Below are positions 1-4,496 of a DNA stretch of 37,438 nt, piece by piece. Within the stretch, counting starts at the first letter, position 1, and the number at the start of each line of letters is the position of its first letter. The position numbers were made by a program, and so were the translations under genes. Below the pieces are notes generated by a model. The model was not told the DNA's origin and did not search any database. It was given only the letters and a program-made list of their open reading frames with translations. This DNA is from a virus: UHGV virus genome UHGV-0041833. One strand, 5' to 3'.

Positions 1-102
1 GCGTATCCTTTTTTGTCTCCTCACCGTCTGGTCGGTGTCCTGCTGAGACTTATAACTTCCTGTTTTTGTTGGTGTAGTCCTTACACCGTCCAATCATGAT
101 TG

Positions 103-127
103 GCTGGCGGGAGTTGAACCCGAGTCC
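103..127 (-). other. Putative attachment-site core: minus-strand segment ggactcgggttcaactcccgccagc resembling the 3' T-arm end of tmRNA (ssrA)
   Basis: 24 of 25 nt match the E. coli ssrA 3' end as recalled from memory; neither flank continues as ssrA, so only a core-length fragment is present; lies 2 kb from int at the start of phage-like DNA. Confidence 0.35.
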
Positions 128-278
128 AAATATCACTAACTTGATGTAATTAATGATTTTTTCGACATTAACTATCTTGCGGATCTTACACGTATCTTTT
201 ACTGTTATATCCCAGTCTTCATAACCAACTATGAATAGTAGATAATCTATAAATCCATCGTATAAGAATGACATCGCT

Positions 279-1190
279 ATGACCATACTGGTACCCCCAA
301 GCAAATTTTGCATTTACTCAGATGATTCTAGGGCTGGGACATTGAACTTCATCAACTCGATTGAATCGATTGGAGTAAAAAATAAAGGTCGAGTTATAGT
401 TGATTTGTCCAAGGTAAAATTTGCCTCAGCTGCGGCATCGGTACTGTTCTTTGCCATAGTAAATAGAGCTCAATTTTTAACCCGGGACCCTAATTTTATA
501 CGTTTTAAATGGCCTAAAAAGGATGATAACCCATCTGGGCATAGATGGATCGTTGGTACTGGACTTGCTCGTGCTTTGCTTGCTGGCACAGAAGAGAAAC
601 TGAATGCACTTACGAGGGAGGAACGATACTTTCAGTCAGCTGTCGAACCTTACGAGCATATTGTTGAAACAGTACTCATGCTGCAGAAAAGTGCTCTGCT
701 TAATAATGAACAGTTAGGCTTACTGCTGACAGCGATTAGTGAAGCTTTGCTCAATGTTTCTCATCATGCGTATGAAGATGAGGGGTTCGAGTCAGATATT
801 CAGCTTCTCAAAGGTAAACGATGGTGGCAGTGCGCTTGGTTCAATCGTGATGAAAATAAAGTCGTTTTTATCGTTTGTGACCTTGGATTGGGGATTTATA
901 GAAGTTTCGTGCCTAATGGTGATGGTCATAGCATTCAAAACGAAGTATCTTCTGTGGAAAGAGCTATGTTAGTAGGGGAATCCCGCTTTGTTGGTTCCGG
1001 ACGGGGAAATGGCTCTGAAGATATCAAGAGACCTATTGGGGCAGGTTGTGAGGATAATGAGACACTTCTGATACTAACAGGAAGGGCTCGTTATAGCTAT
1101 AATTCTAATGACAGTAGTCCTCGATGTGAGAAGCTAGCTGAGTACATACCGGGTACTTTACTACAATGGTCGCTGGTTCCCAGGAGATGA
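279..1190 (+). CDS. GHKL (histidine-kinase/anti-sigma-factor kinase-like) ATPase-domain protein with STAS-like N-terminal segment; cargo gene 1
   Basis: 303-aa ORF; C-terminal half has N-box-like EALLNVSHHA, G1-like CDLGLGI, G2-like GSGRGNG; N-terminal VIVDLSKVKFASAAAS resembles STAS motif; AT-rich versus phage core; first of three tightly spaced genes. Confidence 0.5.
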   Translation: MTILVPPSKFCIYSDDSRAGTLNFINSIESIGVKNKGRVIVDLSKVKFASAAASVLFFAIVNRAQFLTRDPNFIRFKWPKKDDNPSGHRWIVGTGLARALLAGTEEKLNALTREERYFQSAVEPYEHIVETVLMLQKSALLNNEQLGLLLTAISEALLNVSHHAYEDEGFESDIQLLKGKRWWQCAWFNRDENKVVFIVCDLGLGIYRSFVPNGDGHSIQNEVSSVERAMLVGESRFVGSGRGNGSEDIKRPIGAGCEDNETLLILTGRARYSYNSNDSSPRCEKLAEYIPGTLLQWSLVPRR

Positions 1191-1194
1191 TTTT

Positions 1195-1521
1195 ATGAGA
1201 AATATCGTCATAGCGAAGGAGTTCTCCAGAACACCTTTCGGACGTTACACAACGGATAGCCCACACAGTGCGGAAAGATTTCGTAGAGAGTTTTTGGTGC
1301 CTGCGCTGAAGGGTACTGAACAGGAGATTGTGGTTGATTTTCGCGGTATAGCACTGGGTGTTGGTTCCTCTTTCTTAGAAGAGGCGTTTGGAGGTCTCAT
1401 CCGTAAGGAAGGGATACCTAAAGCCAACGTTAAAGCACGTTTGATTATAAAAAGTGATGTTCCGTTCTACAAAGAACAGATTGATAAATTTATTGATTTA
1501 GCACAACCAGAAAGAGTATAA
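1195..1521 (+). CDS. STAS-like (DUF4325-type) small protein; cargo gene 2
   Basis: 108-aa ORF starting 4 nt after previous stop with AGGAGA SD 7 nt upstream; VVDFRGIALGVGSSFLEEAFGGL resembles STAS-like partner-switching domains. Confidence 0.5.
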   Translation: MRNIVIAKEFSRTPFGRYTTDSPHSAERFRREFLVPALKGTEQEIVVDFRGIALGVGSSFLEEAFGGLIRKEGIPKANVKARLIIKSDVPFYKEQIDKFIDLAQPERV

Positions 1522-1531
1522 GAGGCGATAG

Positions 1532-2149
1532 TTGATCAGTACGGAACCAATGTCATTAGTAGCACAAATAGGACAGTATTCGTGGTGTATCACAGTAGTT
1601 AGCGTCTGCTTAGTTTTCATTGGATGGCGAGTTGCGTACAATAATTCTGTAAAACTGGCGACACGTTCTGAATCGAAATCAATTATTGATGCTATTTCAA
1701 AGTTAGTTATTGAAATTTCTGATATTTCTTCTAACTATTGGCTCAGTCAGACAACTCAACCTAAAATTAGAGCATCAAAGCATCGATTGTTAAGGTTGCA
1801 AAAGGATAGAACAAAGGCTTCTGTTTCATACTTGTTAACTATCTTGGCTAAAGCTCAACAAGTTTCCAAACTGATTTGCATTTTGGAAAGCAGAGGACTG
1901 TATATACCTGACGAGGTGTTCTCATCTGTACTAGAGAAAGCAACTCTGGATTGTGAGGTCGCTCACAAGCTTTCAGATGCCGATCGCCCGGTTAAAGCAC
2001 AAGAAGTAATTGATGCTTGTATGGGAGTTATCGAAGCGTTACATACTTCTTTTCAAAGGTACCACCCTCCCAAAAAGGATCGTACCTTTATGCAAAGGTT
2101 AAAAATTTGGTTTCAAACAGTAGACGATTGGCATAATGACTTAAAATAA
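1532..2149 (+). CDS. Single-pass membrane protein with helical cytoplasmic domain; cargo gene 3
   Basis: 205-aa ORF; TTG start with AGAGG SD 6 nt upstream (alternative ATG at 1550); one predicted TM helix SWCITVVSVCLVFIGW; 3' end overlaps the int stop codon by 9 nt (convergent). Confidence 0.5.
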   Translation: MISTEPMSLVAQIGQYSWCITVVSVCLVFIGWRVAYNNSVKLATRSESKSIIDAISKLVIEISDISSNYWLSQTTQPKIRASKHRLLRLQKDRTKASVSYLLTILAKAQQVSKLICILESRGLYIPDEVFSSVLEKATLDCEVAHKLSDADRPVKAQEVIDACMGVIEALHTSFQRYHPPKKDRTFMQRLKIWFQTVDDWHNDLK

Positions 2150-3313
2150 AGCCTTTTTATCCTTGATACTTGCCCTCCCATCATACTCTTTCAAGTATTG
2201 TCCATAGTGCCTGAATAACATTTCAGGCCCTTTATGGCCCATTTGAGCCGCAAGCCAAAACAGGTTTGCTCCCCGGCTGATATGGCTGGTGGCGAATGTA
2301 TGCCTGGTTTGATATGGGTTTCTGTAACGAATACCTGCTTTTCGCAATGTTGGCACCCATGCTTTTTTCCTAATTGCATCAGCACTTGCCCAGGGTTTAT
2401 TGGTCTTTGGATCTTCAAAGACAGTAGCATCCTTCATGAATGTAAATGGCTTCTGGTTTATCAACGCCAACATTGCTTCTTCAGTCAGTTCAACTTTACG
2501 GGTACCGGCTTTTGTCTTTGTTCCTTTGATAACTCCGACAACACTTGCGCTCTGAACATGGGCTGTTTTTCCAACAAAGTCGATATCATGCCATCGTAGG
2601 GCACATAATTCAGAACTACGCAGGCCTGTATGTATGGCGAACCGGAACAGATTTTCCCATTGTTTGTTTCCGGCTGCTGCTAGTAATGCATCAACTTCTG
2701 CTGGTGATAGCGGATCAACCACATAGCTGCTTTCTGCTTCTGACTTATCACTTTGGTAGCGCGAAGCTGTTACTAACGATACGGGGTTAATTTGAAGTAC
2801 CCCATCGGTCACGGCTTCATCAAGTGCTGACCGTAGGAAAGATAACTGGTTGCGAATGGTTTTTAAGGTTGTTTTCTGGCTTTGAATCCACGCTTTCAGG
2901 GTTGCTGGTGTTAATTCACTTGCAGGGCAAATGTGAAGTGAGGCTAACGCACTACGGCATTTTTTATAGCCACCAATCGTAGAGGGTGAAAGTTTTCTTG
3001 TTTCGCAGATTTCAAGATATTCGTCCAGGTACATCTTTACCGTTTTGCTTGCAGCAGCATTACCAAAAATTTTCAAACGAGCAGAACGGGGAAAATATTC
3101 TGCATAAATGAATGTTCCCCTTTCGATCTTATTATGGATTTCGCCGAGTGTACGCTCGGCGTATTTAATGTTCTTTGGTGTTACTTCCAGATTGGAAAGC
3201 GGCTCACGACATCTAACTCCTTTGTAGGTGAAAGTTATATTGATCGTTTCTCCCTGGTGGTGTTTCCTGATTGTTACGCCGCGCGGTAGTTTGAGCAGTT
3301 TTGTCTGGCCCAT
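2141..3313 (-). CDS. int: Tyrosine integrase (phage integrase family with N-terminal arm-binding domain)
   Basis: 390 aa; ATG at 3313 with GAGG SD; C-terminal catalytic region with R...H..R...Y-type motifs (HTFATSHISRGANL, FRHYGQY); overlapped at its 5' end by the xis ORF. Confidence 0.9.
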   Translation of the reverse strand: MGQTKLLKLPRGVTIRKHHQGETINITFTYKGVRCREPLSNLEVTPKNIKYAERTLGEIHNKIERGTFIYAEYFPRSARLKIFGNAAASKTVKMYLDEYLEICETRKLSPSTIGGYKKCRSALASLHICPASELTPATLKAWIQSQKTTLKTIRNQLSFLRSALDEAVTDGVLQINPVSLVTASRYQSDKSEAESSYVVDPLSPAEVDALLAAAGNKQWENLFRFAIHTGLRSSELCALRWHDIDFVGKTAHVQSASVVGVIKGTKTKAGTRKVELTEEAMLALINQKPFTFMKDATVFEDPKTNKPWASADAIRKKAWVPTLRKAGIRYRNPYQTRHTFATSHISRGANLFWLAAQMGHKGPEMLFRHYGQYLKEYDGRASIKDKKALF

Positions 3314-3480
3314 TTTGCAACCTCACTAAGATCAATCCACCTCTCCTTAACGCCTTCAACCTTTAAAACCTGAACACCTTCACGCCAAACACCGCGCTGT
3401 ACACGTTTGTTTATTGCTTCAGGAGTTTCGCCAGTTTCTTTGCAATAAGTTGAGATAGGAACACAATCGAGGTTCAGCAT
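3274..3480 (-). CDS. xis: Excisionase-like small DNA-binding protein
   Basis: 68 aa from ATG 3480 (GGAG SD 6 nt upstream; alternative starts 3492, 3519); overlaps int start by 40 nt; small basic winged-helix-like protein in canonical xis position. Confidence 0.55.
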   Translation of the reverse strand: MLNLDCVPISTYCKETGETPEAINKRVQRGVWREGVQVLKVEGVKERWIDLSEVAKWARQNCSNYRAA

Positions 3481-3521: not shown

Positions 3522-4388
3522 TTAACGAATAGTGTCGTTACTTTGAAGTACAGCAAATGCCATTAATACTTCTAAAGTATATCTTCTATAAAATTTAACA
3601 AAACCAACATAGAAAACATAGACGAAGAAAAAGCTAAGCATTATTGAAAGTAAACTATAAAGATAATCACTATGAGTACATAATCGATAAATAAAGGTTG
3701 GAACTGATACCCAAAATGAAATTATAAAGATTAAACATATGTTTCTGCAAAAACCATATAATGCAACATAGTTTTGAATTTTTGTTTGATGTTGTTTTGA
3801 AAACTCATAAACATAATGATATGCCAATCTGAAGAGATCATCATCAAGTCCGTTTTTATCTTGTAATAATTGGCGATTTGTTATGAACTTTTTCTCATAA
3901 CCTTCTTTGATCATTAACCATGTTGTATTAGCTAAATGAAATGGTAGAGATTGAGAATAACATAGTTTTTGTGTTATAAAATCCCATAGTATTATTGGAC
4001 ATAATACGCATTTGATTATGCGATTCTTTATTTTTGTTTTTTTATCAGCGCTTCTCTCATCGCATGATGGGCTACAAATGCTTTCTGAGGTATCTATCAA
4101 TTTTTTAAATAGATATTTGGAAGGATATCCTAATTCTTTATTCATGTATTTTTCGATAAAAAATGCTGACGTGATAGAAATAAAATGTCCAGCTATATAA
4201 GATATAATAACTATTGAAGCGTAGTTCAAAATGCCAAAGATTTGACTTTGACCTCTGAGCAATTCACTTAAGTCAATAACAATATCTAGATCGAATGTCA
4301 AACCACAGAAATACATTAATAGGATAAAAAAACCACCTGGTATTAAATATCCAAGAAAGTCATAGAATGAGAATGGATTTTGATTCAT
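3522..4388 (-). CDS. Polytopic inner-membrane protein of unknown function (AT-rich cargo gene upstream of xis-int)
   Basis: 288 aa from ATG 4388 with GGAGA SD; several hydrophobic helices at N- and C-termini; strongly AT-rich; 108-bp AT-rich upstream intergenic region with promoter-like hexamers. Confidence 0.6.
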   Translation of the reverse strand: MNQNPFSFYDFLGYLIPGGFFILLMYFCGLTFDLDIVIDLSELLRGQSQIFGILNYASIVIISYIAGHFISITSAFFIEKYMNKELGYPSKYLFKKLIDTSESICSPSCDERSADKKTKIKNRIIKCVLCPIILWDFITQKLCYSQSLPFHLANTTWLMIKEGYEKKFITNRQLLQDKNGLDDDLFRLAYHYVYEFSKQHQTKIQNYVALYGFCRNICLIFIISFWVSVPTFIYRLCTHSDYLYSLLSIMLSFFFVYVFYVGFVKFYRRYTLEVLMAFAVLQSNDTIR

Positions 4389-4496
4389 TGTTGCTCTCCA
4401 ATAATTTTTCAATTTGTAATATAACCTATATCTATATGTTAATAAATTACTTATATGTTCTTTTATGGCAGAGTTTGAATTCGTACGTGCTGATTT

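Follow-up and report, generated by a model that had tools for sequence, protein, structure and literature searches.

We examined a three-gene operon at positions 279 to 2149 of the virus genome UHGV-0041833, which encodes a predicted GHKL-type kinase, a small STAS-like protein and a membrane protein, and which we discuss below as a candidate kinase-gated toxin-antitoxin or abortive-infection module (the window refers throughout to the whole stretch of DNA analysed, 37,438 nucleotides (nt) in length). The source is a prophage of uropathogenic Escherichia coli UTI89, situated between ssrA and glaH and identical in sequence to NC_007946.1 2939862-2943261 on the reverse strand. Three co-oriented open reading frames (ORFs), totalling approximately 1.9 kb, are located between the attachment (att) core and the integrase gene. 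Gene 1 (279-1190, plus strand) encodes a protein of 303 amino acids (aa), with a STAS-like N-terminal domain (approximately residues 1-120) and a GHKL (Bergerat-fold) serine kinase domain. Gene 2 (1195-1521, plus strand) encodes a single-domain STAS-like protein of 108 aa (DUF4325), which is a putative kinase substrate and antagonist; and gene 3 (1532-2149, plus strand) encodes a single-pass membrane protein of 205 aa, read from a TTG codon, with a helical bundle and a putative role as effector. The intergenic gaps are 4 nt (genes 1 and 2) and 10 nt (genes 2 and 3). These ORF coordinates agree with a preliminary description made from the DNA letters, in which three closely spaced genes were flanked by the putative att core on one side and by the int 3' end on the other.

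The tyrosine integrase gene (2141-3313, minus strand; Arm-DNA-bind_2 and Phage_integrase in Pfam, and annotated in RefSeq) is convergent with gene 3 and overlaps it by 9 nt at the gene 3 stop codon. On the other side of the operon, 33 nt 5' of gene 1, a consensus scan returned a weak, putative promoter-like site (TTCATA-17-GATAAT, 218-246, plus strand), with the count of such sites in the region not exceeding the shuffled expectation. The att core itself (approximately 60-130, minus strand) is a copy of the 3' end of ssrA, the transfer-messenger RNA (tmRNA) gene, together with approximately 45 nt of the sequence downstream of ssrA, and forms the prophage boundary. It aligns with the UTI89 ssrA 3' end at the opposite end of the prophage. 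A 22-mer at 109-130 differs from ssrA by two mismatches, where the number of matches expected by chance is 0, and tmRNA positions 348-362 were identified at 108-122 on the minus strand using Rfam (E = 0.017). In phage LLS, an attP and a tmRNA pseudogene are annotated on a stretch homologous to the att core, and there too a cargo gene is found before int. The duplicated ssrA 3' end, along with the variable cargo of sister prophages described below, confirms that the att core is real and that the three genes occupy an att-int cargo position, as previously proposed. We additionally noted an 87-aa ORF (window 50-313, minus strand), covering both the att core and the start of gene 1, which has no RefSeq annotation and is probably spurious.

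The slot between att and int is a variable cargo hotspot. The integrase family was found in 412 of 5,426 complete E. coli genomes, with the three genes (hereafter, the triad) present at 99% identity or above in 129 of the 412, and as divergent alleles in a further 11. Strain M37H contains a triad allele that is 52% identical, and other strains have different genes in the slot, namely an AAA_15/AAA_21 ATPase and a Dam methylase in E. coli 042, a 259-aa hypothetical protein in strain R4, and a DUF4760 protein in strain G12. In sister prophages with integrases that are 92-97% identical (loci L027-L030), similarity to the window begins only 27-53 nt inside the int 3' end, indicating that the exchange boundary lies within the last int codons (window 2141-2180). 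The operon is AT-rich, as had been noted, with a GC content of 0.41 over positions 1-2000 versus 0.50-0.59 in the structural genes, which is a foreign composition relative to the remainder of the prophage. In at least two genomes, E. coli FDAARGOS_1303 and APEC E12053 (hits H4/H5 and H48), the match to positions 1-3400 is split by an IS3-family transposase, within or beside the operon.

The preliminary description did not recognise the triad as a named system, but close relatives with names, VapKSC and CapKS (2026), exist, and the module is therefore not without precedent. VapKSC consists of the kinase VapK, the STAS antitoxin VapS and the PIN toxin VapC (Chambers et al., EMBO J 2026; PMC13373217). 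In this system the third gene encodes a toxin, for which VapS serves as the antitoxin; VapS with a phosphomimetic change sets the toxin free, and the operon confers protection from phage Bas42 (PMC13373217). CapK was shown by experiment to be a serine kinase of a STAS protein, activated by single-stranded DNA (ssDNA); the same activity was inferred for VapK from mutants and structure prediction, including a predicted ssDNA site; and CapK-CapS pairs are transcriptional regulators of the cyclic oligonucleotide-based antiphage signalling system (CBASS), Bub and other immune operons (PMC13373217). The CapK/VapK kinases, which were described only in 2026, sense DNA damage and in response activate immune operons or a PIN toxin. 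In the UTI89 prophage, the same kinase-STAS pair is joined to a third component of another type, namely a small membrane protein.

The gene 1 ORF opens with the first start codon to follow a stop, and the STAS-like domain begins at residue 1. The three motifs from which the preliminary description proposed the N-, G1- and G2-boxes of a GHKL ATPase (EALLNVSHHA, residues 155-164; CDLGLGI, 200-206; GSGRGNG, 239-245) coincide with alignment columns that show no variation among 27 homologues (E155, N159, H163, D201, G203, G205, R242, G243 and G245). We assign E155/N159/H163 to the N-box, D201-x-G-x-G to G1, and R242-G-x-G to G2. The match to Pfam HATPase_c_2 is weak (E = 9e-5; 22.9 bits, compared to a cut-off of 27.4 bits). 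An AlphaFold2 model (predicted local distance difference test score (pLDDT) 86.9, predicted template modelling score 0.89) contains an N-terminal alpha/beta domain followed by a Bergerat fold, and a Foldseek search with this model returned the ATPase domains of Hsp90, GyrB and TopoVI-B. A profile search of 1.84 billion representatives identified 2,297 relatives of gene 1 at E <= 1e-3, and 1,174 at E <= 1e-10. The narrow gene 1 family profile gave no significant match to the VapK sequence (E = 0.19), and a broader profile of 240 family members was therefore needed. This profile matched VapK at 46.9 bits over both domains (VapK residues 39-283), with the N, G1 and G2 boxes aligned, and the CapK of E. 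roggenkampii at 29.8 bits, compared to a best score of 4.3 bits across 600 shuffled controls. By these profile matches and the predicted fold, gene 1 is classified as a GHKL kinase of the VapK/CapK superfamily, with a remote similarity to VapK itself. The comparison of its N-terminal domain with gene 2 was only suggestive (E = 0.039), and the STAS label of this domain, already given to it in the preliminary description, is therefore drawn from the VapK/CapK relationship and from the alpha/beta pattern of the predicted model.

Gene 2 matches Pfam DUF4325 above the cut-off (E = 6e-14; for VapS, E = 2.7e-17). In profile comparisons it was similar to VapS (E = 1.4e-4), and not significantly so to CapS (E = 0.083). 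A G57-S58-S59-F60 (GSSF) motif is invariant among the gene 2 homologues, and is retained in 39 of 40 copies on viral contigs. In alignments, S58 of gene 2 lies opposite S48 of VapS and S59 opposite S54 of CapS, both of which are phospho-serine sites. On the basis of sequence, gene 2 is a VapS-type DUF4325 STAS protein. Single-sequence searches of the PDB with genes 1 and 2 yielded nothing useful, and profile searches only marginal matches to RsbW, with which the N-box of gene 1 aligns, and to RsbS, a weak match for gene 2 (E = 0.6-1.2 across the two); the PDB entries of VapS and CapS (9Z7O, 9Z71) were absent among these matches. Taken together, the profile searches and structure predictions (Pfam, family profile, AlphaFold2 and Foldseek) recovered both the GHKL and the DUF4325 identities that the preliminary description had suggested.

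The triad resembles VapKSC in having three genes in an identical order, of which the first is a STAS and GHKL kinase fusion of the same superfamily without a helix-turn-helix (HTH) domain, and the second a DUF4325 STAS protein of approximately 110 aa with a conserved serine at the matching position; both systems, moreover, are tied to mobile elements or defence loci. It differs in its third gene, which is a PIN nuclease in VapKSC and a membrane-anchored helical protein here, and in gene 2, which does not contain the C-terminal inhibitory helix of VapS. With CapK-CapS, the triad shares the kinase superfamily and a STAS substrate with an SSF phospho-site motif and an N-terminal P-F-G motif. In contrast, the N-terminal HTH of CapK is absent from gene 1, the winged HTH DNA-binding domain of CapS is absent from gene 2, and there is no downstream immune operon, with only gene 3 and the convergent int following gene 2. 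Similarly, a GHKL serine kinase (N, G1 and G2 boxes) is paired with a single-domain STAS substrate in SpoIIAB-SpoIIAA and RsbW-RsbV, although gene 1 carries a fused STAS-like domain, its context is phage-borne, and the sequence similarity is marginal, as given above.

The preliminary description had suggested a partner-switching module. The part of this proposal that holds is a kinase and an antagonist that control a third component, for which VapKSC is a precedent (PMC13373217). The classical form, which needs a sequestered target and a phosphatase, does not, as the operon encodes no sigma factor and no PP2C phosphatase, and neither is conserved in any of the neighbourhoods inspected. The closer model is one in which phosphorylation triggers the release of a STAS antitoxin. 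Searches of the available literature, including recent defence-discovery papers, returned no description of a triad of kinase, DUF4325 and transmembrane proteins. As two defining features of VapKSC (the PIN toxin and the C-terminal helix of VapS), all the distinctive features of CapKS, and the sigma factor and phosphatase of partner switching are absent here, and as neither the literature searched nor the defence models of PADLOC provided a match, we set the triad apart as a CapK/VapK-type kinase-STAS module coupled to a membrane protein, and, judged from its sequence relationships, a previously undescribed sibling of VapKSC.

Gene 3 has two possible start codons, a TTG at 1532 (205 aa), preceded by the Shine-Dalgarno sequence AAGAGG at 1520-1525, and the ATG at 1550 (199 aa) used in RefSeq/PGAP. 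We prefer the former because of its good Shine-Dalgarno sequence, and because homologues carry a matching N-terminal extension. The predicted model is all-helical (pLDDT 83), with a long helix at residues 11-66 that is hydrophobic at its beginning, followed by a helical bundle, in line with the single transmembrane helix and helical soluble domain of the preliminary description. Since basic residues come after the hydrophobic helix, we predict an N-out/C-in topology, which would place the helical domain in the cytoplasm, where genes 1 and 2 reside. Gene 3 has no family match in Pfam, NCBIfam or PADLOC, its PHROG family carries no assigned function, and no PIN domain or other Pfam family was detected in gene 3 singly or over 32 homologues. 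Two candidate identities were rejected. The first was DUF4760 (PF15956), for which no member of the gene 3 family reaches E = 1, a genuine DUF4760 protein was matched at E = 0.28 across 27 columns when profiles were compared, and the UniRef label of this name on one gene 3 homologue was not reproduced. The second was the prophage holin, rejected because a separate lysis cassette exists, with a holin, a GH24 endolysin and a lysis protein annotated approximately 13 kb away in the same prophage. On one IMG/VR contig (L034, 3415-3777), genes 1 and 2 are 100% identical to those of the window and the gene 3 ORF is shortened at its N-terminus, and may be a disrupted copy without the membrane helix.

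The triad may resemble defence systems with small membrane effectors, such as the transmembrane effectors of CBASS and systems of the RexAB type, in which a sensor in the cytoplasm governs a small membrane protein that would, once activated, cause the membrane to collapse. RexAB, too, is produced from the lysogeny region of a prophage. The triad differs from these systems in that control would run through the phosphorylation of a STAS protein. In the comparisons made here, we found no sequence or fold relationship between gene 3 and the small membrane effectors of known defence systems.

We investigated the distribution of the triad across viral contigs and bacterial genomes. Genes 1, 2 and 3 are found in the same order, with tight or overlapping spacing, on all 40 of 40 IMG/VR contigs that contain a gene 1 relative, down to 30% identity, and the same order and spacing are kept at 8 of 8 genome loci with such a relative, although in the most distant of these (L009, Haemophilus) the assignment of the third gene to gene 3 was made by eye only. 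Among 11 more distant kinase relatives, 10 have the kinase followed by a DUF4325 gene and then by a protein of 141-159 aa with an N-terminal hydrophobic helix, and in the remaining one the contig stops after the DUF4325 gene; three of these third proteins are still recognisable as gene 3 homologues. The triad is thus complete and syntenic wherever the contig allowed this to be checked, and is an obligate three-gene unit. It is widespread in temperate phages of the Enterobacterales and beyond, and mostly phage-borne. In E. coli and Salmonella the triad occupies the att-int slot, with further copies in E. coli S88, IHE3034 and APEC O18, and in Yersinia it follows the tail genes. In a P2-like prophage (L075/L076, 3214-5729), a distant version lies directly downstream of, and in the same orientation as, an S24 CI-type repressor. 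This slot is the position of rexAB in phage lambda, and suggests that the triad is expressed in lysogens. A trio of like-sized genes follows the CI repressor in the Francisella phage KIRK (Fhv_0045-0048; a 293-aa hypothetical protein, a DUF4325 protein and a 125-aa transmembrane protein), judged by the published table of sizes and annotations and not by sequence (PMC7924643).

This distribution bears on a function that would serve the phage itself. The triad is almost always phage-borne, beside int or directly after the CI repressor, and gene 3 resembles a small single-transmembrane protein of the holin or exclusion type, both of which would fit a role in the prophage life cycle, such as superinfection exclusion at the membrane, the coupling of induction to DNA damage, or the timing of lysis. 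However, the prophage has a full lysis cassette of its own (holin, endolysin and spanin) well away from the triad, copies are also found in non-phage chromosomal contexts beside toxin-antitoxin genes, and sister prophages that share its integrase and regulatory genes contain unrelated cargo in the slot, indicating that the triad is dispensable for the phage. We consider a function of this kind distinctly unlikely.

The same loci could accommodate plain addiction, by a toxin-antitoxin system of three components that would do no more than stabilise the prophage or island, without contributing to phage defence. Its architecture parallels that of the toxin-antitoxin-like VapKSC, its position is at the boundary of a mobile element, and other toxin-antitoxin genes adjoin it in some loci, with certain copies, including those in non-phage chromosomal contexts, located beside HicAB or Fic modules. 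Simple addiction would nonetheless hardly account for a dedicated sensor kinase whose catalytic boxes are conserved, VapKSC protects against a phage, and the slot in relatives of the prophage contains other defence-like cargo, such as the AAA ATPase with its methylase. We give this explanation little credence.

We propose instead, with about an even chance of being correct, that the triad is one unit of the toxin-antitoxin or abortive-infection type, carried by the prophage and gated by a kinase in the manner of CapK/VapK. The gene structure, the kinase and STAS identities with their relation to VapK/CapK and VapS, the three-gene synteny and the phage cargo location are established by the analysis; we infer the binding partners, the activating signal, the toxicity of gene 3 and the defence phenotype. 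In the resting state, gene 2 would keep the cytoplasmic helical domain of the membrane-anchored gene 3 protein inactive. Infection or DNA damage would turn on the gene 1 kinase through its N-terminal STAS-like sensor domain, the signal, by analogy with CapK and VapK, possibly being ssDNA. Gene 1 would then phosphorylate gene 2 at S58 or S59 within the GSSF motif, and phosphorylated gene 2 would let go of gene 3. The freed gene 3 protein would damage or depolarise the inner membrane, so that growth would stop before the invading phage completes its cycle. In favour of this proposal, we count the invariant kinase boxes and the profile matches to VapK and CapK, the DUF4325 family shared with VapS and the alignment of the GSSF serines with the VapS and CapS phospho-sites, the precedent of VapKSC, the obligate synteny, the predicted cytoplasmic placement of the gene 3 bundle, the location, which is typical of defence cargo expressed in lysogens, and the foreign, AT-rich composition of the region.

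Several observations weigh against this mechanism. None of the three genes matched the protein models of PADLOC-DB 2.0 at E values up to 1. The C-terminal helix of VapS (residues 94-116), which VapS needs to inhibit VapC, is absent from gene 2, and the alignments of gene 2 and of all triad STAS proteins end approximately 20 residues short of VapS; any inhibition by gene 2 must therefore work differently. The residues that contact ssDNA in CapK (W68, K237 and K239) and in VapK (F54) could not be mapped onto gene 1, as the alignments are ambiguous and the supplement numbering is offset. The prophage encodes a LexA-like repressor and is SOS-inducible, and a toxin triggered by DNA damage could in this setting sabotage the prophage's own induction; the activating signal may therefore be a different one. 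Finally, gene 3 is the fastest-evolving of the three genes (mean identities to the window proteins of 58% for gene 1, 70% for gene 2 and 41% for gene 3), which is a pattern commoner in sensors than in effectors.

This last pattern would fit a reversed direction of signalling, with gene 3 as a membrane sensor or scaffold that responds, for example, to phage DNA injection or envelope stress, gene 2 as the switch, and the gene 1 kinase as the output, which would phosphorylate host or phage proteins or sequester a partner in the manner of anti-sigma kinases. In the only relatives that have been characterised, however, the kinase is the ssDNA-activated sensor, and the output is the third gene or a downstream operon. 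The four-helix-bundle matches of gene 3 are generic, its bundle is predicted to be cytoplasmic and not periplasmic, and no further target gene is conserved beside the triad in the neighbourhoods inspected. We regard the reversed arrangement as unlikely.

A broader and doubtful possibility is that the triad may represent the main, unrecognised class of the CapK/VapK superfamily, given that approximately 2,300 clusters at 50% identity match the gene 1 profile and that every neighbourhood sampled has this architecture. Such a class may work unlike VapKSC, either as a phosphorylation-gated membrane pore that many temperate phages produce from their lysogeny region, or as a membrane-embedded sensor of phage entry that acts through a STAS switch on a kinase output. 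If gene 3 is a membrane toxin released by phosphorylation, as in the kinase-gated module that we propose, the triad would constitute a third output class for the kinase-STAS module, and an addition to the defence cargo of the att-int and repressor-adjacent slots of prophages. With a length of only 1.9 kb and a host, UTI89, that is a standard laboratory strain, the triad makes these proposals directly testable.

We additionally identified two further regions of possible cargo in this prophage. Between xis and yfdR (window 3522-4412, minus strand), a very AT-rich stretch with a GC content of 0.36-0.38 encodes a 296-aa hydrophobic protein, which shows weak similarity to Csx27, the accessory membrane protein of type VI-B CRISPR systems (E = 1.4e-5 in PADLOC; E = 0.02 in NCBIfam, far under the cut-off). 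This protein belongs to phrog_12528, a family with no assigned function, and may represent a second piece of cargo. At the opposite prophage end, beside the intact ssrA and outside the window (UTI89 2900623-2905717; L032 10624-15718), another cargo cluster encodes two hypothetical proteins, a LEM-3-like GIY-YIG protein, a DinI-like pseudogene and a DUF262 protein.

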